Shown one piece after another: positions 7 through 56,100 of a DNA stretch of 64,000 nt. The stretch covers positions 389,586-453,585 of the forward strand of contig JAFATB010000022.1 of the NCBI GenBank assembly GCA_019244185.1, read 5' to 3'. The stretch comes from Acidobacteriota bacterium. GTDB taxonomy: Bacteria; Acidobacteriota; Thermoanaerobaculia; Gp7-AA8. Numbering within the stretch: the first letter of the stretch is position 1; each line of letters opens with the position of its first letter. The notes below the pieces were generated by a model. It saw nothing but the letters and a program-made list of their open reading frames with translations. It searched no databases and had not been told where the DNA came from. The translations under genes were made by a program, and so were the position numbers.

Positions 7-2442
7 ATGCAACGCCGCTTCGCGTTGAACAACGCTGTCCCCGATACGCCTGCGGTCGAGAGCAGCGTTTCTGAAAATCAGTGGCAGCGGATTTTCGGAT
101 CGCTTGGGTTGGGACTCGGGGACCCGGGCACATTCGACCGCTTTCTTGTGCAGCTGGACGAGGAAACCAATCCGAGCCTACGCATCAATCATCGTTACCT
201 TGGCGAGCTTTTGCCGCACGACAACATGATCAGTTACCTGTCGTCGATGCTCGCGACGTTTCTCAATGAGAATGCGATCATCGGCAAGGCGTCGCCTTGC
301 GTGACGCATATGGAGATGGCGGCCGTGCGCTGGCTGCTCAATCTCGTCGGCTGGGATGGCCAGTTCCGCATCAACGGGCAGGCAACGCAGATTCCGCTGC
401 AGCGTCTGCCGATTGCTCCGTCGCCGAATCAACATTTCCAACGCTGGGATGCGGAAGAGCCGACCGGCGCCATTGTGGCCGGCGGCACCATCGCGAACAT
501 CAGCGCGCTACTCGTCGCGCGGAACGCTGTCTTCGACTATCTCCTCGGCTTGCAGGGCGCCGTCCAGACGCTCGGTCCGGGCGTGGCCTGGGAGGCGATT
601 CAAAAGGCGTGGGGCTACCGTCGGATGGTCGTCCTCACCTCGCTGGGAACGCATTACTCGGTCAAGAAAGCAGCATTGCAAGCTGGCATTCCGCCTGCCA
701 ATGTTATCGAAATCGCAGGCTCGCAAAACCCCTGGGTGCTGGATGTCGGCGCGTTCCGCGCCAAGATCGAAACCCTGCAGCCCAGCGATCTCGTGGTGGC
801 CGTGGTGCTCATCGCCGGCAAGACCGAGACCGGCTATGTCGACGAGATTGGTGCGATTGCGAACGCGCTCGATGCCTATGCGGAACAGGACGAAAGCAGC
901 CGAACCTTGCCGGCGTATCACACGATCGCGCCGCGTCTGCAGGAGCATTGGGACGCGATTTGCGGCCTGATTCAGGCCAATCTTTTGGACTCGGAAAAAG
1001 CCCTTCAGCAGATCACAACGCTGCGGCAGGCGAATGCTGCCGCAAAATCGACCGCGACGCTCTATGCTGATCTGGCACTCGGCGGTCAGAACGAAGTGGT
1101 AGGGTCCCGGCACAATCGCCTGTTTCTGCACGTTGATGCCGCTCATGGTGGTGGCTATCTGACCGTGCCGGAATTGCGCCATTCGGTGTTTTCCGGCATC
1201 GAGCATGCGGACACGATTACGATCGACGGTCACAAGTCGTTTTATTGCTATTACCCGTGCGGCGGAGTATTGATCCGAACGACGCGATGGGCGCAGACGC
1301 TTACGACCGGTCACAGCGACTATATCAGCGAGGAAACGAATTACGAGGCGTATCCGGAAACAGCCGCGGTGTTCGAGCGGCTGCGCGGCGAGCAAAAGCA
1401 ATTCGAGCAGGGAAAATTGCGTCCGCTCAACCTTCAGATCCGGCAACGTCATCTCGACGAAATCGCCGCATGGCATTCGCTGGCGCGGCGTTCGCTCGGC
1501 GAAAGCCGATCGGAACTGACGCATCAGCCCTTCAATCAGTACCTGGAGGGTTCCCGCGGCGCGCAGGGGATCATGCAGTTGTATTTCAATCTCGCGACGC
1601 TCGGATTGCGCGGCTATCAGTCCATTCTCGAATGGACCTGTTTATTGCGCAGTCGATGCGAAGAAGCGATCTCTCTGGGAATGTCCGATCTCCGCCCAGT
1701 GACAGATCTTCCACTCCCGGCGAGCTTGTATGCGACGGACAAGAGTTGGGCGATTGCGACGGCGACGCTGCAGCCGGAAGACATCGGGCGGGACGTGCCG
1801 GAGGCGGTCGTGCCGATCGCCGGTGGACGGTTTTTGCGACTGAGCGCGGGAAATTGTAACCAGGTGTTGCTCACGTACATCCCTGCGCATGAGGCCAAGC
1901 TGATCGTCTCCGCTGACACGCAGTATTGGAGCGAGGAGATCGGTGGCCAGTCACGAATCCGAACCACAATGGAGTACCTGTGGCGGGTGAACGAACAGCT
2001 CTGGAATGAGCACGTCTATGCGAATCCGAATTTCACGTATTACGTGGGGCACACCGCACTCGAAATGAAGCTTCCGTATGCGTTGGTCAAAGATGACGAT
2101 GAGCCGCGCAAGAAGGAGTTCGTGAAGATGCTGGCGGCGTGGAATGCATGGAGTCGTTGGCCGGAAGCACGTGAAACAGGTTTCTTCCGCGCGCTTGCGG
2201 AGGCGGTGAAGGCGGATGAACCGGTGCAAAAGCGAAAGAATGAACCGGAGAACTCGCACAGTCGAAAGCGCGTCCAGAGCGTCTTGAAGTTCTTCTGCCA
2301 CAAGATCATCCTCATGCATCCGTTCACCGACGAATCACTGGTTGGCGACATGCTGCGGCGAATGGCCTTCTGGGGAGAAATCAGCGTCCGCGATGTCCGC
2401 ACAGCGGACGCGGCGGCGAAGGTGCTCCGCGGACTTCAGTGA
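7..2442 (+). CDS. Group II pyridoxal-dependent decarboxylase with unusually long N- and C-terminal extensions (811 aa); may continue upstream of window start
   Basis: PLP-lysine motif ...HVDAAHGGGY...IDGHKSFYCYYPCGG..., typical small-domain motif QGIMQLYFNLATLGLRGY; ATG at 7 but upstream unknown. Confidence 0.7.
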   Translation: MQRRFALNNAVPDTPAVESSVSENQWQRIFGSLGLGLGDPGTFDRFLVQLDEETNPSLRINHRYLGELLPHDNMISYLSSMLATFLNENAIIGKASPCVTHMEMAAVRWLLNLVGWDGQFRINGQATQIPLQRLPIAPSPNQHFQRWDAEEPTGAIVAGGTIANISALLVARNAVFDYLLGLQGAVQTLGPGVAWEAIQKAWGYRRMVVLTSLGTHYSVKKAALQAGIPPANVIEIAGSQNPWVLDVGAFRAKIETLQPSDLVVAVVLIAGKTETGYVDEIGAIANALDAYAEQDESSRTLPAYHTIAPRLQEHWDAICGLIQANLLDSEKALQQITTLRQANAAAKSTATLYADLALGGQNEVVGSRHNRLFLHVDAAHGGGYLTVPELRHSVFSGIEHADTITIDGHKSFYCYYPCGGVLIRTTRWAQTLTTGHSDYISEETNYEAYPETAAVFERLRGEQKQFEQGKLRPLNLQIRQRHLDEIAAWHSLARRSLGESRSELTHQPFNQYLEGSRGAQGIMQLYFNLATLGLRGYQSILEWTCLLRSRCEEAISLGMSDLRPVTDLPLPASLYATDKSWAIATATLQPEDIGRDVPEAVVPIAGGRFLRLSAGNCNQVLLTYIPAHEAKLIVSADTQYWSEEIGGQSRIRTTMEYLWRVNEQLWNEHVYANPNFTYYVGHTALEMKLPYALVKDDDEPRKKEFVKMLAAWNAWSRWPEARETGFFRALAEAVKADEPVQKRKNEPENSHSRKRVQSVLKFFCHKIILMHPFTDESLVGDMLRRMAFWGEISVRDVRTADAAAKVLRGLQ

Positions 2443-2469: not shown

Positions 2470-3969
2470 TCACTCACCGGCCGCTTGCTCCTCTTCCGGC
2501 GTGAGCGGTTTCATCAGCGGGAACCACACCACGTCGCGCAGGTTCGGCGCGTCGGTGAGGAGCGCGACAAAGCGGTCGATGCCCATGCCCCAGCCGGAGA
2601 TCGGCGGCATGCCGAATTCCATCGCGGTGAGGTAGTCCTCGTCGACCGGCATCGCTTCATCATCTCCTTTTTTCCGCAGTTCCGCCTGATCCTCGAAGCG
2701 GCGGCGCTGGTCGAGCGGGTCGACGAGCTCGGAGTAGGCGTTGATGACTTCCCACGTGTCGACGACGAGCTGGAAGCGGTCGACGGCGGCGGGGTTCGCG
2801 TCGTTGCGGCGCGCGAGCGGGGAGAGGTCGACGGGATGGCCGACGATGAACGTCGGCTGGATGAGTTTCGGACGCGCGGTGCGCTTGTAGAGCTGGTCGA
2901 TGAGACTGCCGCGGCCCGCGGTCGGATTGTCGAGGTCGACCTTCGCGGCGAAGATCGCGGCGCGGAGCGAGTCGGCGTCGGCGTGCGCGTCGATGTCGAT
3001 GCCGCTGTTCTCGAGGATGACGTCGGCGAGCCGTTTGCGCGGCCACGGCTGCGCGAAGTCGATCGTGTGGCCGCCGCGCTCGATCTGCAGCGTGCCGACG
3101 GCTTCCTGGATGGCGTGACGGAGGAGGTCCTCCGTGAACGTCATGTTGTCCTCGTAGTTCCAGTACGCGGCGTAGTACTCCAGCATCGTGAATTCCTGGA
3201 GGTGCGACGCGGCGAGTCCCTCGTTGCGGAAGCAGCGCGCGAACTCGTAGACGCGGTCGTAGCCGCCGACGACGAGGCGCTTGAGGTACGTCTCCGGCGC
3301 GATGCGGAGGACGACGTCCATGTCGAGGGCGTTGTGGTGCGAGAAGAACGGCCGCGCCAGCGCGCCCGACTGCTGCGTGTTGAGGATCGGCGTTTCGACC
3401 TCGACGAAGCCGCTGCGGTTGAGGAAGTCGCGGATCGCGTTGACGCTCTTCGTGCGGATGCGGAAGCGCTCGCGCGTCTCCTCGTTCGAGACGAGGTCGA
3501 GGTAGCGCTTGCGCCAGTTCGTCTCGACGTCCTTGACGCCCTGGTATTTGTTCGGCGGCGGCTGGAGCGTCTTGCCGAGCATGACCCAGTCGTGGACGCG
3601 GATGGTCAGCTCGCCTTTGTCGGTGTGGTACATCTCACCGTCGACGCCGAGGAAATCCCAGCGGTCGACGTACTTCGTGAAGAGCTCGTACTTGTGGCGG
3701 CTCTTTTCGGGATCGGCGTCGAGCTGATCGCGGATGAGCGCGAGCTGGATGTGCCCGTCGAAGTCTTCGAGCGTGGCGAAGGTGAGCTTGCCGAAGCGGC
3801 GGAGCTGACCGACGCGGCCGGCGGCGCGGACGTGCGTGCCGTCGGGGAGCGCCATGATCTCGCGGAGCGTATGCGTGCGCGCGAAGCGGTCGGGATGCAC
3901 TTGCAGGCCTTCGCGCTCGAGGGCCGCGCGCTTCTCGATCCTGACCTCGCGTAAGGACTGTTCGGCCAT
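2470..3969 (-). CDS. lysS: Lysine--tRNA ligase (class II)
   Basis: 499 aa starting MAEQSLREVRIEKRAALEREG; class II motifs (FRNEG..., GMGIDR), OB anticodon-binding N-term; ORF track 2470..5055 extended upstream by antisense read-through of neighbouring gene, true ATG at 3969. Confidence 0.9.
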   Translation of the reverse strand: MAEQSLREVRIEKRAALEREGLQVHPDRFARTHTLREIMALPDGTHVRAAGRVGQLRRFGKLTFATLEDFDGHIQLALIRDQLDADPEKSRHKYELFTKYVDRWDFLGVDGEMYHTDKGELTIRVHDWVMLGKTLQPPPNKYQGVKDVETNWRKRYLDLVSNEETRERFRIRTKSVNAIRDFLNRSGFVEVETPILNTQQSGALARPFFSHHNALDMDVVLRIAPETYLKRLVVGGYDRVYEFARCFRNEGLAASHLQEFTMLEYYAAYWNYEDNMTFTEDLLRHAIQEAVGTLQIERGGHTIDFAQPWPRKRLADVILENSGIDIDAHADADSLRAAIFAAKVDLDNPTAGRGSLIDQLYKRTARPKLIQPTFIVGHPVDLSPLARRNDANPAAVDRFQLVVDTWEVINAYSELVDPLDQRRRFEDQAELRKKGDDEAMPVDEDYLTAMEFGMPPISGWGMGIDRFVALLTDAPNLRDVVWFPLMKPLTPEEEQAAGE

Positions 3970-3993
3970 TGCGGTGCCGGAGGATAGCAGAGC

Positions 3994-5238
3994 GTGAATA
4001 ATGGCGCGCGCATGAACATCGAGGCCATTCGAGCTGCCTTTCCCGCGCTGCAGCGCGTCCACAACGGCCAGCCGGTCGCGTACTTCGACGCGCCCGGCGG
4101 AACGCAGGTGCCGCGCGCGGTCGCCGAGGCGATGACGGACTATCTCTTTCATCACAACGCGAACACGCACTGGTCGTATCCGACGAGCGCGGAGACCGAC
4201 GCGATCATCGCGAACGCGCGCGCGGCGATGGCGGACCTGCTGAACGCGCGGCCGGACGAGATCGCGTTCGGCGCGAACATGACCACGCTTACGTTTCACC
4301 TCGCGCGGGCGCTGGGGCGGACGTGGGACGACGGGGACGAGGTCATCGTCACCGAGCTCGATCATCACGCGAACGTCGCGCCGTGGCGCGCGCTGTCGAT
4401 CGACCGCGGGATCGTGGTGAAGATGGCGCGGCTGATTCCGGAGACGATGCAGCTCGACTACGAGCATCTCGCCTCGCTGGTGACGGAGCGGACGAAGCTC
4501 ATCGCGGCCGGCGGCGCGTCGAACGCGATCGGCACGATCAACGACCTGCAGCGCATCGCGAAGCTGGCGCGCGATGCGAACGCGCTCTTCTTCGTCGATG
4601 CCGTGCACTTGACGCCGCACGAGCTCGTCGATGTCGAGGCCATCGGCTGCGATTTTCTGGCGTGCTCGTCGTACAAGTTCTACGGTCCGCACGCGGGGAT
4701 TCTCTTCGGACGTTTCGGCTTGCTCGACGTGCTGCCGTTCCCGAAGCTCGCGCCCGCGCCGGACCGCGCGCCGGAGCGCGTCGAGACGGGGACGCAGAAT
4801 CACGAGGGGATCGCGGGGATCGCGGCGACGGTCGACTTTCTCGCGTCGCTTGGTGGTGACGGCGGGGACAATGCCTGTACAAGGCGCGAGCGGCTGACGC
4901 GCGCGTACGCGTCGCTGCACGAGAGCGGCCTGCGGCTGACGCGGATGTTGTGGGATGCGCTGACGTCGATGAAGCACGTGCGCGTGTTCGGTCCGCCGCC
5001 GACGCAGCCGCGCACGCCGACGCTGTCGTTCACGATCGAAGGCGCCGACTGCCACGACGTCGCGCGGGTGCTCGCAGAACGTGCGCTCTTCGCGAGCAGC
5101 GGCGACTTTTACGCGACGACGGTCTGCGAGCGGCTGGCGCTCGAGTCGCTCGTGCGCGTCGGCTGCGGCTGCTACACGACGGCGGACGAAGTGCAGCGGC
5201 TCATCGACGCGGTCGAACGGCTCCGGATCTTGCAGTAG
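3994..5238 (+). CDS. Class V aminotransferase-fold PLP enzyme, cysteine desulfurase / selenocysteine lyase-like
   Basis: SSYKFYGPHAGILFGR PLP-lysine region, HHNANTHW..., overall SufS/CsdA-like architecture; alternative start ATG 4012. Confidence 0.8.
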   Translation: MNNGARMNIEAIRAAFPALQRVHNGQPVAYFDAPGGTQVPRAVAEAMTDYLFHHNANTHWSYPTSAETDAIIANARAAMADLLNARPDEIAFGANMTTLTFHLARALGRTWDDGDEVIVTELDHHANVAPWRALSIDRGIVVKMARLIPETMQLDYEHLASLVTERTKLIAAGGASNAIGTINDLQRIAKLARDANALFFVDAVHLTPHELVDVEAIGCDFLACSSYKFYGPHAGILFGRFGLLDVLPFPKLAPAPDRAPERVETGTQNHEGIAGIAATVDFLASLGGDGGDNACTRRERLTRAYASLHESGLRLTRMLWDALTSMKHVRVFGPPPTQPRTPTLSFTIEGADCHDVARVLAERALFASSGDFYATTVCERLALESLVRVGCGCYTTADEVQRLIDAVERLRILQ

Positions 5239-5250
5239 GATGCGTCTCGT

Positions 5251-5883
5251 ATGGCGAAGCGACCCACGAACGAGCCCGAGCCGCAGTCATCCCGCACGAG
5301 TCTGATCATCCTCTCCGCCGGCGCGATCGTCGTCATGGCCATCGTCGGCTGGGCGCTGACGCGCAGCGTGACGCCGTCGGTGCCCGATGCGCCGACGCTG
5401 ACGGGCACGACGGTCGATTCGTCGACGTCCGTCGCGACGACGGCGCCCTCATCCACCGCGACGTCACCGACCGGCACGCTGCCGCCGCTCACCACGGCCG
5501 CGAACACGCCGACGGCGGACGAGCGGGTCATGGATACCGAGGAAGATAAGCGGAACGTGCCGCGCATCGCGGTCGAGGATCTGATTGGCAAAGTCAAACG
5601 CGGCGAGGTGACGGTGATCGACGTGCGCGATGAGGCGTCGTTCTTCCGCGGGCACATTCCGGGCGCGCTGCACATTCCGCTCGCCAGCGTCGAGAGCCAG
5701 CTCGCGGCCATTCCGCGCGGGAAGCCGATCGTCACGTACTGTACGTGACCCAACGAAGAATCGAGCGCCGGTGCGGCGCTCATCCTGCAGCACAACGGCG
5801 TCCAGAACGTTTCCGCGCTGGCCGGCGGCTTCCACGCCTGGCAGAACATGGGGCAGACGGTGGCCACCGGAACGGCGCAGTAA
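5251..5883 (+). CDS. Membrane-anchored single-domain rhodanese sulfurtransferase interrupted by in-frame TGA at 5746-5748 (candidate selenocysteine, or nonsense/pseudogene)
   Basis: N-terminal TM helix, Thr/Ser/Pro-rich linker, rhodanese fold (VIDVRDEASFFRGHIPGALHIP...PIVTYCT-TGA-PNEESSAGAALILQHNGVQNVSALAGGFHAWQNMGQ); the 44 codons after TGA are in frame and supply the conserved C-terminal GGxxAW helix of rhodanese; ORF track stops at 5748. Confidence 0.55.
5763..5781 (+). promoter_or_regulatory. GC-rich hairpin GAGCGCC-GGUGC-GGCGCUC 14 nt downstream of the in-frame UGA; candidate bacterial SECIS-like element
   Basis: perfect 7-8 bp stem, apical loop GGUGC with G at first positions, UGA-to-loop distance ~24 nt (within range reported for bacterial SECIS). 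Confidence 0.3.
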
Positions 5884-5901
5884 TCGCAGCGCAGTGGCGG
5901 C

Positions 5902-6309
5902 GTGTTTACGCTCGTTCCGCACATCGCTGACGTTCGCGTGCTCTTGCGCGCGGCGACGCTGGAAGCGCTCTTCGCCGACGCCGTCTTCGGCATGTACGCG
6001 GTGATGCGCGACGAGGAGACGACCAGCAACACGTCGCCGGTGACGCGCACGATCGCCGTCGACGACTCCGCCGATACGACCGCGCTCCTCGTCGATTTCC
6101 TCAATGAAGTCCTGCACCGCGCGCACGTCGCGCGCGAGCGCTTCACGCATGTCGCGTTCACGCGCTTCGAGGAGCGCTCGCTCACCGCGGAGCTCACCGG
6201 CATCGCACCCGCATCGTTCGAAGAGGACGTGAAGGCGGTGACGTATCACGAGGCCGACGTGCGCCGCGACGGCGACGACTGGACGACGATGCTCGTGTTC
6301 GACCTATGA
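5902..6309 (+). CDS. Archease (RtcB activator)
   Basis: GTG start; VFTLVPHIADVRVL...YHEADVRRDGDDWTTMLVFDL matches archease family; stop overlaps rtcB start (ATGA). Confidence 0.8.
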   Translation: MFTLVPHIADVRVLLRAATLEALFADAVFGMYAVMRDEETTSNTSPVTRTIAVDDSADTTALLVDFLNEVLHRAHVARERFTHVAFTRFEERSLTAELTGIAPASFEEDVKAVTYHEADVRRDGDDWTTMLVFDL

Positions 6310-7691
6310 AGAAATCGGATTTCGAAAAGCTCGACGAGTTCCTGTGGGAGATCCCGCAGACCCACCGCGGCGACATGCGCGTGCCGGCGCGCGTCTACGC
6401 GACCGAGGAGATGCTCGACTCGATCGTGCGCGACCGGTCGCTCGAGCAGCTGGTCAACGTGGCCACGCTGCCGGGCATTCAGAAGTACGCCATCGCGATG
6501 CCGGACGTGCACGAGGGCTACGGCTTTCCGATCGGCGGCGTGGCCGCGGTCGATGCGCGCGACGGCGTCGTGTCGCCCGGCGGCATCGGCTACGACATCA
6601 ACTGCGGCGTGCGCCTGCTGCGCGCGTCGACGTCGTTCTCCGAAGTCGAGCCGCGCCTCGGGAAGCTCGCGCATTCGATCGCGCGCGAGGTGCCGTCCGG
6701 CGTCGGCCGCGGCGGCGCGCTGAAACTCAACGCGACCGACTTCGAGCTCGTGCTGCGCGACGGCGCGTCGCGCGCGATCGAGATGGGCTACGGCACTGCC
6801 GATGACGTCGCGCACATCGAGTCGAACGGGAAACTCGACGGCGCGGAGCCGCATCTCGTCTCCGGCGCGGCGCGCGAGCGCGGACACGACCAGCTCGGCA
6901 CCATCGGCTCCGGCAACCATTTCGTCGAGATCGATCGCGTCGACACCGTCTACGACGCCGACGAAGCGTCGCGCCTCGGCATCGCTTTCAACTCCCTCGT
7001 CGTGCAGATCCACACCGGTTCCCGCGGGCTCGGCCACCAGGTCGCCACCGACTCGCTGCGCGTCATGACCAAGGTGATGGCGCAGTACGGCATCGAGGTC
7101 GCGGATCGCGAGCTCGCCTGCGCGCCGCTGTCGTCGAGGGAAGGGCAGAAGTACCTCGCCGCGATGGCCGCCGCCGCGAACTTCGCGTTCGCGAATCGGC
7201 AGGTGATCACCGCCGGCATCCGCCGCGCGTGGCAGCGCGAGTTTCCCGACGACCCGGTCGCAATCGTCTACGACGTCGCGCACAACGTCGCGAAGGTCGA
7301 GCGCTACGGCGACGCGGACGTCGTCGTGCACCGCAAGGGCGCCACGCGCGCGTTTCCGGGACAGCCGGTGCTGATCCCCGGCAGCATGGGCACGGCGTCG
7401 TACCTGCTCGTCGGGCAGGACGCGTCGATGACGCAGACGTTCGGCTCGAGCTGCCACGGGGCGGGACGGATGATGTCGCGCACGCGCGCGCGAAACGAGA
7501 TCAACGCCGAAGAGCTGCGCGGGCGGTTGCGCAAGCTCGGCATCGTCGCCGAGGCGGGATCGTCGAAGGGGCTCGTTGAAGAAGCACCGGAGGCGTACAA
7601 GGACATCGACGCGGTGGTCGATGTCGTCGCGCGCGCGGGCATCGCGAAGAAAGTCGCGCGCTTCGTGCCGATTGCGGTGATCAAGGGCTGA
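6306..7691 (+). CDS. rtcB: RNA 3'-phosphate/5'-OH ligase RtcB
   Basis: 461 aa, motifs PDVHEGYGFPIGGV, GSGNHFVEI, SCHGAGR typical of RtcB. Confidence 0.9.
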   Translation: MKKSDFEKLDEFLWEIPQTHRGDMRVPARVYATEEMLDSIVRDRSLEQLVNVATLPGIQKYAIAMPDVHEGYGFPIGGVAAVDARDGVVSPGGIGYDINCGVRLLRASTSFSEVEPRLGKLAHSIAREVPSGVGRGGALKLNATDFELVLRDGASRAIEMGYGTADDVAHIESNGKLDGAEPHLVSGAARERGHDQLGTIGSGNHFVEIDRVDTVYDADEASRLGIAFNSLVVQIHTGSRGLGHQVATDSLRVMTKVMAQYGIEVADRELACAPLSSREGQKYLAAMAAAANFAFANRQVITAGIRRAWQREFPDDPVAIVYDVAHNVAKVERYGDADVVVHRKGATRAFPGQPVLIPGSMGTASYLLVGQDASMTQTFGSSCHGAGRMMSRTRARNEINAEELRGRLRKLGIVAEAGSSKGLVEEAPEAYKDIDAVVDVVARAGIAKKVARFVPIAVIKG

Positions 7692-7816
7692 CGCCGACGC
7701 GTCGCGGCGCGTTTGCGCGCATCGCAAAAGTTGCTGTCACCCCTTGCGCATCGGGCTTTCCGGCCTTATGTCTGTACCACTCGCCTTAATTGGGTCCAGA
7801 CAAACGGGAGGCTTCG

Positions 7817-9679
7817 ATGCGCTCAAGGGGATTCCTGTTCACGTTGGGATTGGTGTCTTTGTGCGCGGCACTGTCCGCGCAGCCGGTGCGGCCGCGGATT
7901 CCGGTGCTCGACGGGCCGGCCAGCGGGCAACGCACGATCAACCTGCCCGGAGGCGTGCCGCTCGTGCTCGAACGCGCGACGACCGCGTGCGCGGGCGGCG
8001 GGACGTGCTGGGTCGCGCGCGATCCGCTGACTTATCGGCAATGGTTCGCGATCATGGGCACGTCGCGCTTTCCCGACGTGGCGCCGCAGGAGCTCGATCG
8101 TCCGATCGAGTCGCTGACGCCGGCCGACGTCTCGGGCGACAAAGGCTTTCTCGCCGCGCTGGCGGCGTATCAGGAGAAGTTCCCCGGCGACGCGCCGATG
8201 AAGTTCGGCGGACCGGTCACACCGCTGCCGCAGGCACAGGCAAATAGCACCGGCGTGCACATCACCGCGACGATGGCCTCGAACAAGTCGCTGCAGCCGA
8301 TCACCGACGCCGCGTGCACGTTCGGCGGCGCGAGCGGCATCTCGTGCGGCCAGACGCGCTCCGGCTCGCTGTCCGTCTCCGACTGCACGCTCGGCGACGG
8401 CTCGTACGCGGACGTCTACTCCTTCAGCGGCACGTCCGGTGAGCAGGTGACGATCAACCTCTCGTCGACGGCCTTCGATACCTATCTCCTGCTCTACGAC
8501 CCGTCGGGAAGTCTGGCCATGACCGACGACGACAGCGGACCGGGTCTGAACTCGCAGATCGCGTACACGCTGACGGCGACCGGCACGTGGTACATCGTCG
8601 CGAACTCGCTGCACGCCGGCGACACCGGCGCGTACGACGTGCTGCTGAGCTGCGACAACGGCAACACGAACTGCAACGTCGGCACGACCTCGTGCGGCGC
8701 CACCGTCTCCGGCGCGCTGTCGACGTCCGACTGCCAGCTCAGCGATGGTTCGTATGTTGACTTCTATCAGTTCTCCGGCACGGCCGGCACGACGGTGACG
8801 ATCGATCTCTCGTCGAGCGCGTTCGACACCTACCTCGTGCTGCTCGATCCCAACGCCAACCTGGCCGCGTTCGACGACGACAGCGGCGGCGCGCTCAACT
8901 CGCGAATCGTCTACACGTTGACCAGTTCGGGGAACTGGGTCATCGGCGCGAACTCGCTGCACGGCGGCGCGACCGGCGGCTATTCGCTGCACACGAGTTG
9001 CGGCAACCCGACCTCGTCGTGCACATACACGCTCGGCAGCTCGTCGGCGTCGTACGGCTCGGGCGGCGGCAGCGGCAGCGTGCAGGTGAGCGGCTCGCCG
9101 TCGAACTGCACCGGCAGCTGGAGCAGCATCAGCAACGCCTCGTGGCTGGGCATCACCAGCGGCTCCGGCGGCTCCGGCGCGGGACCGTTCACGCTGAACT
9201 ACTCGGTCGGCTCGAACAGCTCGTCGTCGTCGCGCAACGGCTCGATGACCGTCGCCGGCCACACGTTCACGGTCACGCAGTCGGGGCAGTCGACCGGCGT
9301 CTGCACGCCGAGCTCGACGCGCGCGTGCCTGCTCAACGGACGCTTCGCCGCGACGGTGCGCTTCCGCGGCGGCTTCGACAACGGCTCGGCCGACACGAAC
9401 GCGTTCGTCAAATCGGTGAGCGGCTTCGCCAGCCCCAACTTCGAGACCGCGTTCTTCTACTTCAACAGCGACAACAACATCGAGATGCTGCTCAAGATGC
9501 TCGATCAGGGGAACACCGATGGCGCCGGACATCCGACCATCGCGGTGCTGTTCGGCACGGCAACGCCGCTGCGCATCGAGCTGTCGATCACCGATACGCA
9601 GACCGGCATCACGCGCACGTATTCGAGCGACTTCAGCGCGATGCGCGGCGTGACCGACTTCACCGCTTTCCTCAAGTGA
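7817..9679 (+). CDS. Secreted protein with two tandem pre-peptidase C-terminal (PPC) domains, a BACON/Ig-like domain and a C-terminal beta domain
   Basis: GGGAGG RBS before ATG 7817, signal peptide MRSRGFLFTLGLVSLCAALSAQP; two ~100-aa Cys-bounded repeats (CGQTRSGSLSVSDCTLGDGSY... and CGATVSGALSTSDCQLSDGSY...). Confidence 0.7.
   Translation: MRSRGFLFTLGLVSLCAALSAQPVRPRIPVLDGPASGQRTINLPGGVPLVLERATTACAGGGTCWVARDPLTYRQWFAIMGTSRFPDVAPQELDRPIESLTPADVSGDKGFLAALAAYQEKFPGDAPMKFGGPVTPLPQAQANSTGVHITATMASNKSLQPITDAACTFGGASGISCGQTRSGSLSVSDCTLGDGSYADVYSFSGTSGEQVTINLSSTAFDTYLLLYDPSGSLAMTDDDSGPGLNSQIAYTLTATGTWYIVANSLHAGDTGAYDVLLSCDNGNTNCNVGTTSCGATVSGALSTSDCQLSDGSYVDFYQFSGTAGTTVTIDLSSSAFDTYLVLLDPNANLAAFDDDSGGALNSRIVYTLTSSGNWVIGANSLHGGATGGYSLHTSCGNPTSSCTYTLGSSSASYGSGGGSGSVQVSGSPSNCTGSWSSISNASWLGITSGSGGSGAGPFTLNYSVGSNSSSSSRNGSMTVAGHTFTVTQSGQSTGVCTPSSTRACLLNGRFAATVRFRGGFDNGSADTNAFVKSVSGFASPNFETAFFYFNSDNNIEMLLKMLDQGNTDGAGHPTIAVLFGTATPLRIELSITDTQTGITRTYSSDFSAMRGVTDFTAFLK
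8345..9001 (+). repeat. Intragenic tandem duplication (~310 bp units, 8345-8653 and 8692-9001) encoding two PPC domains
   Basis: protein-level repeat with ~60% identity read directly from translation. Confidence 0.6.
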
Positions 9680-14385: not shown

Positions 14386-14919
14386 CTACGGCTCCGCGAA
14401 CGCGGCGCGGATGCGCTCTTTCGGCGGCAGCGGTGGCCACATGCGGAAGACCCGCAGGAGGCGGTGGCCGGTGATCCGCTCGCGGAAGTAGCGCTCGTGC
14501 TCCCACTCGACCTCCGCCATCATCAGCAGCGGCTCGAGCATCGACTCGCGTCCGGCCGCGCGCGCGAGCCGGGCCGCGTCTTCGTACTCGTTCACGTTCC
14601 AGCGCTCGAGCCGTCCCGCGCCGTACATCGGGATGAACCAGCCTCCGATGTGGCAGAGCAGGCCGATCGTGCGGCCGATGCACCAGAACGCGATCTCGCG
14701 GCGCATGCTCGGCTTCGCGCCGAGCTCCGCGAGCAGCCCGCGCACGAGCGCGCGGTGATGCCATTCCTCCGCCTCGATCGTGCGGATGCGCTCGCGCTCA
14801 TCGGCGCGGCGGACGCTCTTCCAGTGGCCGCGATAGGCGAAGCCGGCGGCGAGCTCGCCGGAGCAGGCGCTGCGCAGCACGCGAACGAGCTCGGTCGCCG
14901 GATCGGGTGCGTTCGCCAT
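14386..14919 (-). CDS. Ferritin-like di-iron carboxylate domain protein
   Basis: two ExxH motifs (EAEEWHH, EVEWEHERYF). Confidence 0.55.
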   Translation of the reverse strand: MANAPDPATELVRVLRSACSGELAAGFAYRGHWKSVRRADERERIRTIEAEEWHHRALVRGLLAELGAKPSMRREIAFWCIGRTIGLLCHIGGWFIPMYGAGRLERWNVNEYEDAARLARAAGRESMLEPLLMMAEVEWEHERYFRERITGHRLLRVFRMWPPLPPKERIRAAFAEP

Positions 14920-53107: not shown

Positions 53108-56100
53108 TCAGGGCTGAATGGGCTCGTAGTCCGGCAGCAGCACGACGTTCTGCTTGCGCACCGCGTCGCGGAACTGCGCGACGTCGGACGCGTACAGCTG
53201 GTTCAGATCGGCGAGCACGCTGCGCAGCAGCAGCTCCGCGTTCGCGAGATACGTCAGCTGCGCGGGCGTCGGCGCGTCCCACGACGACTGCATGGCGTTG
53301 ATCGGATAGCCGATGCGGGACAGCACGTCGTTCTCGGCGACGAGGCCTTTCGTCTTCGGCGGCGTCCAGAGGCGGCGTTCGATGGCGTCGAGCTTCGCCT
53401 TCAGTTCCGTGGCCTGCTTCGTCAGCGGATCGGGCGGCGCGTTCGTCGCGGCGGCGTCGCGGTCGTCGTCCTTCTTCAGCTTCGCCGTGATCGCATCGAG
53501 ATCGGCGCGCGTCTTCTGGATGCGCTCGACCGCGGCGGTCGCGGTTTCCTGCAGCGCGCCAGCGCGCACGATCGCGTCGTACTTTGCCTGCCGCACCGAC
53601 TGCGCGATCGTCTCGCGCGGATCGGCGACGACGGTCACCTGCTGCTTCGCCTCGTTGCCGCGGAAGCGGATCGTGACGGTGTAGACGCCCGGCACGACTT
53701 CCGGACCTCCGCGCCGGCGGAACGATTCTTCTTCGCCCTCGCCGCGCTTCGGCTGCTTGAAGGCGTCGCGCGTGAGATCCCACGACGCGCGGTTCACGCC
53801 GAGGATCGCGGGACCTTTGAACTTGCGAATGACCTTGCCGGCGGCGTCGGCGACTTCGATGTCGACTTGCGGCGGCTTGTCGTCGCCGGCGCGTGTCGCC
53901 TGCGTTTGGCCTTGCGGCTTCTGCGCTTCCTTCTGTTCCTGCTTCGCCTTCTGCGCCTCCGGCTCCTTCGGCACGTCGCTCACGACCTGCGGCACGCCTT
54001 CGTCGGTCACGATCGCCTGCCGCGCGGCGTCGCGTTCCTTCTCCTTGCGCTCGCGTTCGCGTTCTTCCGTCGGATGCGGGATGCCGGCGACGTTGAGCGA
54101 GTAGGTGAGGAGCGCGCCGTACGGCTCGTTCTCGCCGCGGAATTCGGAGTCGCCGACGAAGCGCGAGCCTTCCTTCTGCCGCACGGTGTACTGCTGCGCG
54201 TCGGGCACGCTGAAGAAGTGCAGCGGCTCGGCGAGCACGGCTTTCGACATCGTGCGCAGCGGGCGGATGTCGTCGAGGATGTACGCGGCGCGCCCGTGCG
54301 TGGCGATGGCGAGATCGTGATCGCGCGGATGGATCTTCAGTCCCTGCACGGACACCGTCGGGAAGCCGTGCTTCCACTTCGACCACGACTTGCCGCCGTC
54401 GAGGCTCGTCCAGAGACCGAACTCCGTGCCGAGGAAGAGGAGATCGGCGTCGACCGGATCCTGTTCGATCGAGAGCGCGTAGCCCCAGAGGTCTTTCGTC
54501 GCCAGCGACGTCCACGTCTTGCCGTAGTCGTTCGTGCGGAAGACGTACGGCGTCCAGTTCGAGCGGCGGTGATCGTCGAGGACGATGAACGCGGTGCCGG
54601 CGTCGTACGTCGAGGCCTTGATCTCCGGCACCCACGTGTTCGCGGGAACGCCTTTGAGATTCGCCTCGACGCTCGTCCAGTGCGCGCCGCCGTCGCGCGT
54701 CACCTGCACGCGGCCGTCGTCGGTGCCGGCCCAGACGACGTTGCGGTCGACGGGACTCGGCGCGAGCGCGATGATCGTCGTGAAGTTCTCCGCGCCGCTC
54801 GCGTCGAGCGTGAGGCCGCCGCTCTTGTCCTGCTGCTGCCACTCCTTGCGATTCGTCGTGAGATCGGGGCTGATCGTCTTCCACGTCTCGCCGCGATCGC
54901 TCGAGTGATGCACGTACTGGCTGCCGAAGTAGACGCCGTTCGGATCGAACGGATCGACGGCGATGGCGGCGTTCCAGTTGAAGCGGATGGGCGTGTTCGG
55001 ATCGAGTGGCGCGGGGCGGATGTCCTTCCGCTCGCCGGTGCGCAGGTTCCAGCGGACGATGTGCCCTTCCTGGCTCATCGCGTAGCCGACCATCGGATCG
55101 GTGGGAATCGGCGCGGTGCCGAAGCCGTCGCCGAACCCGATCTCCTGCCAGTCCCAGTTGCGCACGCCGGCGGTCTCCCACGTCGTGTTCGGCCCTTTCC
55201 ACGAGCCGTTGTCCTGCATGCCGCCGTAGATGTTGTACGGCATCTCGTTGTCGACGGCGATGTGGTAGTACTGGCCGAGCGGCAGCGACGCGACGAAGCG
55301 CCAGCTCGTGCCACGGTCGCGCGATTCCGAGACGCCGCCGTCGTTGCCTTCGAGGATGTGGCCGCCGTCGTTCGGATCGATCCACATCGCGTGATGGTCG
55401 GGATGCACTTTCGAGTACGGCACGAGCGTCTTGAACGTGCGCCCGCCGTCGTTCGACACGCTGATCACCGAGTAGATGTTGTAGACGCGATTCGCGTCCT
55501 GCGGATCGACGCGGAGAAACGTGTAGTAGAACGGGCGATTGGCGATGTCGGTCTCCGTGTTGACCGCGGTCCATTTGCGACCGCCATCGTCGGAGCGCAG
55601 CAGCGCGCTCTTGTCGGCTTCGACGAGCGCGTAGACGATGCTCGGGTTCGAGCGCGCGATGGCGACGCCGATGCGCCCCAGCACACCTTTCGGCATGCCG
55701 TCGTCTTCGGTATAGCGCTTCCACGTTTCGCCGCCGTCGTACGAGACGTAGAGTCCCGAGCCGGGGCCGCCGGAGTTGAAGTACCACGGCCAGCGCCGGT
55801 ACTCCCACATCGACGCGAAGAGCTTGTTCGGATTCGACGGATCGATGACCAGATCGGCGGCGCCGGTGCGGTCGTTCACGAAGAGCACTTTGCGCCAGCT
55901 CTTGCCGCCGTCGACGGTCTTGAAGACGCCGCGGTCGGCGTTCGGCGACCACTCCTGGCCGAGCGCGGCGACCCAGGCGACGTTTGGATCGCGCGGATGC
56001 ACGACGATGCGCGGAATGCGCTCGGTCTTGTCGAGGCCGAGGTGCTGCCAGGTCTTGCCGCCGTCGAGCGTCCGGTAGACGCCGTTGCCGACGGAGACGG

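Follow-up and report, generated by a model that had tools for sequence, protein, structure and literature searches.

A membrane-anchored selenoprotein rhodanese encoded between a SufS-like enzyme and an archease-RtcB pair in uncultured soil Acidobacteriota

The window analyzed in this study is a stretch of 64,000 nucleotides (nt) of an acidobacterial genome (GenBank assembly GCA_019244185.1, contig JAFATB010000022.1, positions 389,586 to 453,585 of the forward strand). The subject is a string of four plus-strand genes within it, which encode a pyridoxal phosphate (PLP) enzyme with a SufS-like fold, a membrane-anchored rhodanese, archease and the RNA ligase RtcB. The host clade is a family-level group of uncultured soil Thermoanaerobaculia (Acidobacteriota). 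An earlier note on this DNA had proposed that the string couples RNA repair to the re-thiolation or selenation of tRNA. Each of the four products has described relatives, with which the locus is compared first.

The downstream pair can be compared with the archease and RtcB of P. horikoshii, with the human RTCB/ARCH pair and with the rtcBA operon of E. coli, which is under the control of RtcR (sigma54). The window RtcB is of the archaeal/eukaryal type (461 amino acids, aa), and the archease gene directly precedes rtcB, its stop codon overlapping the rtcB start. RtcB matches P. horikoshii RtcB over its full length (E 9e-151; Pfam 522 bits), and the motifs GYDINCG, GSGNHF, HTGSRGLGHQ, AHN and CHGAGR are identical in the two proteins; the metal-ligand and guanylylated-histidine residues are D97, C100, N204, H205, H236, H326 and H384. 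Archease, encoded beside RtcB, scores 84.6 bits against a Pfam cutoff of 25, and no sequence match to it was found among solved structures. Judged from these residues, the two are a canonical RNA ligase pair with all catalytic residues intact. Unlike the P. horikoshii and human pairs, however, the window genes have no predicted promoter of their own and are joined downstream of a selenoprotein gene. As in E. coli rtcBA, a bacterial operon here encodes an RNA repair ligase of the RtcB family, but the window RtcB falls below the cutoff of the bacterial RtcB models of NCBIfam (NF007153: 214 vs 407 bits) and its partner is archease. Neither an RtcA cyclase nor an RtcR regulator was found within 10 kb on either side of the string, and we know of no tRNA-splicing context in these bacteria.

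The PLP enzyme resembles the type II cysteine desulfurases SufS and CsdA in its fold, its PLP lysine, its end-to-end alignment with SufS (E ~1e-48) and the rhodanese gene next to it. SufS and CsdA have SufE, CsdE, TusA and the rhodaneses of ThiI and MnmH as acceptors; the window string, in contrast, has a tyrosine in place of the catalytic cysteine, a rhodanese predicted to face outward and no thiolation enzyme. The rhodanese, for its part, belongs with the CxU type, which is "form 3" of five described forms of rhodanese selenoprotein, all of unknown function (PMC13188914, PMC9312934). Its best NCBIfam match is NF041203 (rhodanese_LYCAU "(seleno)protein"), which it matches over model positions 12-120 of 126 with 72.1 bits, below the equivalog cutoff of 115. 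It shares with NF041203 and form 3 a single rhodanese domain and, at the active-site loop, a Cys followed two positions later by selenocysteine (Sec). It differs in its motif, which is TYCTUPxEESS rather than LYCAU, in its N-terminal transmembrane anchor with a Thr/Ser/Pro linker of about 60 aa, and in its occurrence in soil Acidobacteriota and Chloroflexota, where it is annotated as truncated. E. coli PspE and YgaP, both among the solved-structure matches, are likewise small single rhodanese domains at the envelope. However, PspE is soluble, its signal peptide being cleaved off, YgaP is anchored at its C-terminus with the domain in the cytoplasm, and both carry Cys in a basic loop, whereas the window rhodanese carries Sec in an acidic loop behind an N-terminal anchor.

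Our analysis favors, with fair but not strong confidence, the reading that two separable modules, not one pathway, make up a composite operon specific to this lineage, in which archease-rtcB is carried along on the transcript of a selenoprotein gene unrelated to it. The first module would consist of the cytoplasmic PLP enzyme and the outward-facing membrane Sec-rhodanese, and the second of the archease-RtcB RNA ligase pair. The earlier note did not recognize the arrangement as a described one, and the literature searched indeed holds no link of RtcB or archease to a rhodanese or a cysteine desulfurase. The gene string itself is therefore undescribed in that literature, and nothing found supports a new mechanism.

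Conservation of the gene string

The four gene identities proposed in the earlier note were borne out by Pfam matches (Table 1), as was the tight co-directional packing, with gaps of 12, 18 and -4 nt and an ATGA overlap shared by archease and rtcB. The genes lie on the same strand, are separated by short gaps, have no terminator at any junction and keep their order in relatives. They are thus a real string and are probably co-transcribed.

Table 1. Window coordinates of the genes and expression signals in and beside the four-gene string
Feature	Position	Strand	Remarks
lysS, lysyl-tRNA synthetase (LysRS)	2470..3969	-	divergent neighbor; translation begins MAEQSLREV; Pfam tRNA-synt_2
Putative lysS -10-like box TATCCT	3981..3986	-	11 nt before lysS ATG; leaderless-type
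PLP enzyme, TIGR01976, SufS-like fold	3994..5238	+	Pfam Aminotran_5, E 4e-68
Putative PLP-enzyme -10-like box AATAAT	3997..4002	+	9 nt before ATG 4012
Putative rhodanese -10-like box TAGGAT	5236..5241	+	9 nt before ATG 5251; overlaps PLP-enzyme stop codon
Membrane-anchored selenoprotein rhodanese, 210 aa	5251..5883	+	Pfam Rhodanese, E 8.5e-19
UGA predicted to be read as selenocysteine (U166)	5746-5748	+	homologue survey, downstream conservation, hairpin
Putative selenocysteine insertion sequence (SECIS) hairpin GAGCGCCG-GUG-CGGCGCUC	5763..5781	+	starts 14 nt after UGA; apical G 23 nt after UGA
Archease, RtcB activator	5902..6309	+	GTG start; Pfam Archease, E 1e-23
RtcB, RNA 3'-phosphate/5'-OH ligase	6306..7691	+	Pfam RtcB, E 1.6e-156

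Related loci (labeled L001 and so on) were sampled three ways: by relatives of the rhodanese, with one genome per species, by relatives of the PLP enzyme in metagenomes and by RtcB orthologues. Lineages were counted as distinct when their PLP enzymes were at most 89% identical pairwise. The divergent lysS gene forms the conserved left border of the block, and its product is 83-89% identical across all related loci. The lysS, PLP-enzyme and rhodanese genes are adjacent in all 16 distinct Thermoanaerobaculia lineages of the clade. All four genes of the string are present in nine of these (window/L167, L001, L090, L098, L170, L171, L175, L176 and L177), and archease-rtcB is absent from the locus in the other seven (L005/6, L008, L010, L011, L087, L089 and L093). 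The gene-order check that the earlier note called for therefore shows a conserved order, not one kept in no relative. Since order and tight spacing recur in nine distinct lineages, the packing, as far as comparison of loci can tell, is beyond chance.

The spacing between rhodanese and archease is 3-18 nt in five of the six lineages measured, and only 3-4 nt in four. L170 has a gap of 69 nt and an ATG start for archease. In L177 a second rhodanese, of the Cys form, and a flavodoxin gene are inserted, and the flavodoxin stop codon overlaps the archease start. A further insert was seen in L010 (6950-8000), where about 1 kb of repeat-rich, apparently non-coding DNA lies between the PLP-enzyme and rhodanese genes; its translated repeats read ...PDRVLSLPDRVPREAQPC...

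In the seven lineages without archease-rtcB, the rhodanese gene is followed by genes which in the window lie further downstream (AMP-binding ligase, DUF2231, aldolase II). These genes are thus part of a syntenic backbone, and archease-rtcB is a presence/absence block beside a highly variable segment. In addition, a neighbor-joining tree of the PLP enzyme places four-gene loci throughout the linked clade, which indicates that the four-gene arrangement is ancestral and that archease-rtcB was lost several times. The segment 3' of rtcB (7692-9679 in the window; equivalents in L001, L090, L170, L171, L175 and L176) differs in almost every lineage: it encodes a PPC/BACON protein in the window and elsewhere a beta-lactamase, PAS-HisKA kinases, a Big_3_5 protein or a cation-efflux protein. 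With its syntenic flanks, this segment appears to be a local hot spot of gene turnover.

Outside the clade the association disappears. About 25 more distant TIGR01976 loci, with 5 kb or more of flank, have no rhodanese and no RtcB close by, and about ten loci of Sec-rhodanese paralogues lack both the PLP enzyme and RtcB in their surroundings. More distant archease-rtcB pairs follow tdk (2-nt gap, RtcB 76% identical) or lie beside clpS (72%). In the composite-operon reading, the two modules would have been joined in the ancestor of the clade, after which archease-rtcB would have been retained in nine lineages and lost in seven, with the first module unaffected. Such a history points to operon accretion and shared transcription as the source of the adjacency, not to repair plus re-thiolation.

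The selenocysteine codon and the rhodanese family

The rhodanese reading frame extends to 5883 only with read-through of an in-frame TGA. Public annotation and gene callers end the protein at this codon, which gives a product of 165 aa (P0001, "rhodanese-like domain-containing protein"). The Pfam Rhodanese match, however, covers residues 109-199 and spans the TGA; it scores 68 bits against a cutoff of 22, with the nucleophile (Sec) at the start of the active-site loop. The 44 codons 3' of the TGA are conserved in frame and align with full-length Cys-form homologues. Of the 120 best homologues, 86 have gene calls that end at ...IVTYCT at this position, 32 have Cys (CTCPxEESS) and two have Trp. 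One of the two Trp calls, P0008 (L174 323-832, from a JGI metagenome), was compared with its DNA, which has TGA, so that a spurious "TWPAEESS" protein stands in public databases. This Trp is probably an artefact of an alternative genetic code in gene calling; the other call, P0007, carries the same W.

Among the fetched loci, the codon at the Sec position is TGA in 28 and TGT or TGC in four. The nucleotides after the codon are almost invariant in the TGA forms, synonymous sites included (GAAGAATCGAGCGCCGGTGCGGCGCTCATC), whereas in the four Cys forms they have diverged and the hairpin cannot form. The label "(seleno)rhodanese" in the earlier note is thus upheld, both by the split of homologues between UGA and Cys and by a hairpin confined to TGA forms. 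The hairpin folds with -15.5 kcal/mol (z = -2.4 in a 36-nt window), and folding the first 60 nt after the UGA in one piece is uninformative (z = -0.6). Its 7-bp helix is 97.9% paired over 20 distinct sequences, compared with 28-56% when the pairing partner is slid, and a Chloroflexia homologue has two compensatory pairs in it. The core GCGCC-NGUNN-GGCGC is kept in distant Sec forms of Terriglobales, Anaerolineales and Chloroflexota. Rfam scans returned no curated RNA family for the hairpin, either over the whole window at gathering thresholds or around the UGA at E<=10, so the SECIS call rests on the comparative evidence.

Two other accounts of the TGA were considered. First, a reassignment of the genetic code was ruled out, since TGA is the ordinary stop of archease, of rtcB and of the next gene. 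Secondly, the TGA could be a true stop or a pseudogene lesion, leaving a truncated protein of 165 aa. Gene callers and NCBI annotate just this product, and no selA, selB, selC, selD, tRNA-Sec or second gene with an in-frame TGA was found within the window. However, truncation would remove the active-site loop together with the final third of the domain, the in-frame conservation past the TGA and the alignment with Cys-form homologues would go unexplained, and an identical TGA with its hairpin occurs in dozens of lineages of two phyla. A truncated protein therefore has next to no probability, and on the comparative evidence the rhodanese is a genuine selenoprotein.

The protein begins with a basic, predicted cytoplasmic tail (residues 1-17), followed by a transmembrane helix (18-36), a linker to about residue 100, made up of some 60 residues rich in Thr, Ser, Pro and Ala, and the rhodanese domain (105-205). 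The active-site motif is C164-T-U166-P-N-E-E-S-S, i.e. C-x-U, and Sec166 aligns without gaps with the catalytic Cys of the solved rhodanese 6mxv. The basic loop described by PF00581 (C-X4-[RK]-[ST]) is absent: the loop U-P-[NA]-E-E-S-S is acidic, with neither Arg nor Lys, and the Glu at +3 is conserved across the family. Over 119 homologues, the 15 residues before the transmembrane helix hold a mean of 2.66 Lys and Arg and the 15 residues after it 1.06, with the excess on the N-terminal side in 90 of 119. By the positive-inside rule this excess places the rhodanese domain outside the cytoplasm, and the protein is predicted to be a type-II single-pass membrane protein with an extracytoplasmic catalytic domain.

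Unlinked Sec-rhodanese paralogues adjoin genes for ArsR-family regulators (L007, L009, L012 and L024), OsmC (L007 and L012), cytochrome c (L015 and L016) and a BON-domain protein (L014). With such neighbors, a redox or stress role at the envelope fits better than tRNA chemistry, and the C-x-U motif in an acidic loop likewise points to redox or sulfur/selenium handling at the cell envelope. Tandem membrane rhodaneses follow the PLP enzyme in L005 (6383-6919) and L177 (2693-3193), where a Cys form (TGT) and a Sec form (TGA) are followed by flavodoxin; they are a natural Cys/Sec duplicate pair inside one operon.

By its motif and architecture, the window protein is a variant of the known CxU selenoproteins: membrane-anchored, with the motif TYCTUPxEESS, below the curated cutoff and misannotated as truncated. 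Membrane-anchored Sec-rhodaneses of this kind are widespread and are systematically annotated as truncated proteins of 140-180 aa. Dozens of lineages among soil Thermoanaerobaculia, Terriglobales and Chloroflexota carry them, and the one related curated model scores them under its cutoff. Recognizing the family adds a variant to the rhodanese selenoproteins and adds Sec use to what is recorded for abundant uncultured soil Acidobacteriota.

The PLP enzyme and the proposed relay to tRNA

The PLP enzyme passes the cutoff of TIGR01976 (am_tr_V_VC1184) with 435.6 bits against 352.35, over profile positions 2-401 of 401. This model is a hypothetical equivalog named "cysteine desulfurase-like protein", of unknown function, and the literature search on it returned nothing relevant. 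The enzyme falls below the curated cutoffs for SufS (243 vs 475 bits), CsdA (150 vs 494), SclA (83 vs 525) and IscS (79 vs 643), and also below those of the NifS models of NCBIfam. Lys228 (SSYKFYGP, codon 4675-4677) aligns with the PLP-binding lysine in the SSHK motif of SufS, as belongs to the class V fold. The catalytic column, which was fixed by alignment to B. subtilis SufS, wild type and C361A mutant (7e6a), holds Tyr373 (GDFYA, codon 5110-5112) in place of C361, and this Tyr is invariant in 23 of 23 homologues. With Tyr for the catalytic Cys there is no enzyme-bound persulfide, and canonical cysteine desulfurase action is impossible. The earlier note had called the enzyme SufS/CsdA/selenocysteine-lyase-like; it has the SufS fold and the PLP lysine but not the catalytic Cys, and it scores below the curated cutoffs of these families. 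Annotations and pathway inferences that treat TIGR01976 proteins, "cysteine desulfurase-like" by name but with an invariant Tyr, as desulfurases are accordingly unsafe.

In the relay that the earlier note envisaged, sulfur or selenium would pass from Cys or Sec through the PLP enzyme to the rhodanese and would restore thio or seleno marks on tRNAs religated by RtcB and archease. There are several points in its favor: the SufS-like fold with its PLP lysine, the Sec or Cys nucleophile at the catalytic position of the rhodanese, a neighborhood (pheST, lysS and rtcB) that is tRNA-related throughout, and an order conserved in nine lineages. However, we consider the relay highly improbable for several reasons. 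First, the desulfurase catalytic Cys is Tyr in every homologue compared. Secondly, the rhodanese domain lacks basic loop residues and is predicted to lie outside the cytoplasm, where it would not meet tRNA, RtcB or the PLP enzyme, which argues against a persulfide or perselenide relay to tRNA. Third, the string and its immediate surroundings encode no adenylating or tRNA-binding modification enzyme: Pfam assigns every one of the four products to families of a single type, none holds a PP-loop, THUMP or SelU-type module, no tRNA-thiolation or selenation gene of the ThiI, MnmA, TtcA or MnmH/SelU type lies within 10 kb on either side, and the MnmH models gave only sub-threshold partial matches of about 20 bits. 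In addition, religation by RtcB leaves base modifications in place; it is established chemistry that joining RNA ends does not strip them. Lastly, the association is dispensable in seven lineages of the clade and absent outside it. With parts of the relay missing and the linkage so loosely kept, the notion of one pathway for RNA repair and re-thiolation or selenation was not sustained.

A narrower proposal is that the PLP enzyme and the rhodanese form a new kind of sulfur- or selenium-trafficking pair, with archease-rtcB merely adjacent. The enzyme may, for example, be a Cys-less lyase that frees selenide or persulfide from Sec, cystine or cysteine sulfinate, or it may recycle selenium for the adjacent selenoprotein. 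E. coli NifS homologues without the catalytic Cys lose cysteine desulfurase activity and keep selenocysteine-lyase and cysteine-sulfinate desulfinase activity. The adjacency of the two genes in all 16 clade lineages supports such a pair, as does Cys378 (codon 5125-5127), five residues past Tyr373, a position held by Cys in 12 of 13 rhodanese-linked enzymes and by Ile or Val in 10 of 10 unlinked ones. Cys378 could be a relocated nucleophile or a mere clade signal; since the rhodanese-linked enzymes are monophyletic, it is only a lead. Against the pair stand the different predicted compartments of the two proteins (cytoplasm and outside), the same pairing with a Cys-form rhodanese in L011, a separate predicted promoter before the rhodanese gene, and the frequency of both unlinked TIGR01976 genes and unlinked Sec-rhodanese paralogues. 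Outside the clade no conserved partner of TIGR01976 was found; its neighbors vary, with gyrB/parE-like genes upstream in three loci. A dedicated trafficking pair is thus quite unlikely in our estimation.

Expression signals and the link to archease-rtcB

A consensus scan of positions 3500-8200 found no sigma70-type promoter. The same region holds three terminator-like matches, against a mean of 2.4 in shuffled sequence, and none is at a gene junction: one lies inside the PLP-enzyme coding sequence, another corresponds to the SECIS hairpin as scored on the reverse strand, and the third is downstream of rtcB. A -10-only signature of leaderless type emerged only when orthologous upstream regions were aligned. 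TAnnnT occurs 5-11 nt before the ATG in 9 of 33 putative genes, compared with 1.2% of all ATGs; minus-strand examples are the ATGs at 14919, 28623, 46760, 49563, 56452 and 57545. The signature suggests that many mRNAs of the host acidobacterium are leaderless, i.e. without a 5' untranslated region.

Signals of this kind precede three genes of the locus (Table 1). The lysS promoter element GGAGGATAGCA is conserved in L098, L171 and L005. In most loci homologous to the PLP-enzyme gene, the equivalent ATG is preceded at 7-11 nt by TACAAT, TAGAAT, TACGAT or a similar hexamer, which makes ATG 4012 a more likely start of the PLP enzyme than GTG 3994; the GGAGGA preceding 3994 is the lysS -10 box read on the other strand. 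Before the rhodanese ATG, gTGcAGTAGGAT (or TAGCAT, TACGAT or TATCAT) stands at a distance of about 9 nt in nearly all PLP-linked orthologues examined, and the motif is kept where it is non-coding (L098, L008 and L087). This suggests that the box in the window is an additional internal promoter for rhodanese-archease-rtcB. A promoter so placed would make these three genes the tightest unit of the string, rather than the desulfurase-rhodanese pair. Archease has neither a -10-like box nor a clear Shine-Dalgarno sequence, its start is GTG or TTG in five of six related clusters, and its translation probably starts by reinitiation once ribosomes have reached the stop codon of the preceding gene.

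In the composite-operon reading, lysS, the PLP-enzyme gene and the rhodanese gene would each have their own leaderless-type -10 box, and archease-rtcB, without a promoter of its own, would be expressed by read-through and by termination-reinitiation from whichever gene lies upstream: the rhodanese in the window, flavodoxin in L177 and tdk in L172.

The same signals bear on the chief rival explanation, in which the link is regulatory or physiological and involves no shared chemistry. Rhodanese, archease and RtcB would then be one transcription and translation unit, translation of archease would need ribosomes to decode UGA 5746 as Sec, and the level of RNA ligase would track selenium or Sec-tRNA status, or a common signal of envelope or redox stress. 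In its favor, a -10 box is conserved immediately 5' of the rhodanese gene and there is none before archease, which has non-ATG starts and, in four lineages, gaps of 3-4 nt. A TGA-form rhodanese lies upstream in every sampled archease-rtcB cluster (directly in eight, and in L177 via flavodoxin), and L011, the only locus with the Cys form as its sole rhodanese, is without archease-rtcB. Moreover, paralogues beside ArsR regulators and OsmC suggest stress regulons. However, seven lineages have the same Sec-rhodanese without archease-rtcB, the intervening flavodoxin gene in L177 and the 69-nt gap with an ATG start in L170 do not fit, and the archease of L172 is equally close-coupled to tdk, so that the coupling looks opportunistic. 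For these reasons we consider regulatory coupling possible but unlikely. Its strictest form, in which archease and RtcB would be made only by ribosomes that have passed the Sec-UGA and reinitiate over a gap of 3-18 nt at a GTG or TTG without a ribosome-binding site, is very doubtful. In a related variant, the C-x-U rhodanese may be a redox partner that keeps the oxidation-sensitive active site of RtcB reduced. Sec-gated coupling, if true, would make a recoding event the gate to a repair enzyme encoded downstream, and would be a new tie between RNA repair capacity and selenium status.

Several points weigh against the composite operon as we read it. The four-gene string spans the deepest splits of the PLP-rhodanese clade, it outlived the insertion of a second rhodanese and flavodoxin in L177, and six of eight sampled RtcB orthologues at 75-82% identity lie in it; there may be some selection for keeping the four genes together. 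The very small gaps between rhodanese and archease also speak for real co-expression. In addition, the comparison covers fairly close relatives, whose LysRS is 83-89% identical to that of the window, so that neutral synteny and selected linkage predict similar patterns. The promoters are predicted at the level of a consensus, with none returned by the sigma70 scan, and the outward topology of the rhodanese is predicted from the positive-inside rule and the composition of the linker. The locus nevertheless serves as a caution against reading function from tight packing, given promoter-less archease-rtcB behind selenoprotein, flavodoxin or tdk genes.

Two observations concern other parts of the window. 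A tRNA-Glu(ctc) of 87 nt called by ARAGORN at 53300-53386 (+) is probably a false positive: it lies within a minus-strand open reading frame of 1114 aa, and the Rfam tRNA model gave no match there even at E<=10. To the left of lysS, positions 7-2442 (+) encode an unusually long protein of the Pyridoxal_deC family (811 aa in the window, 890 aa in the full contig), which has two separated matches to the decarboxylase profile. The gene sits between pheS and lysS only in this lineage; in relatives pheST directly adjoins lysS.

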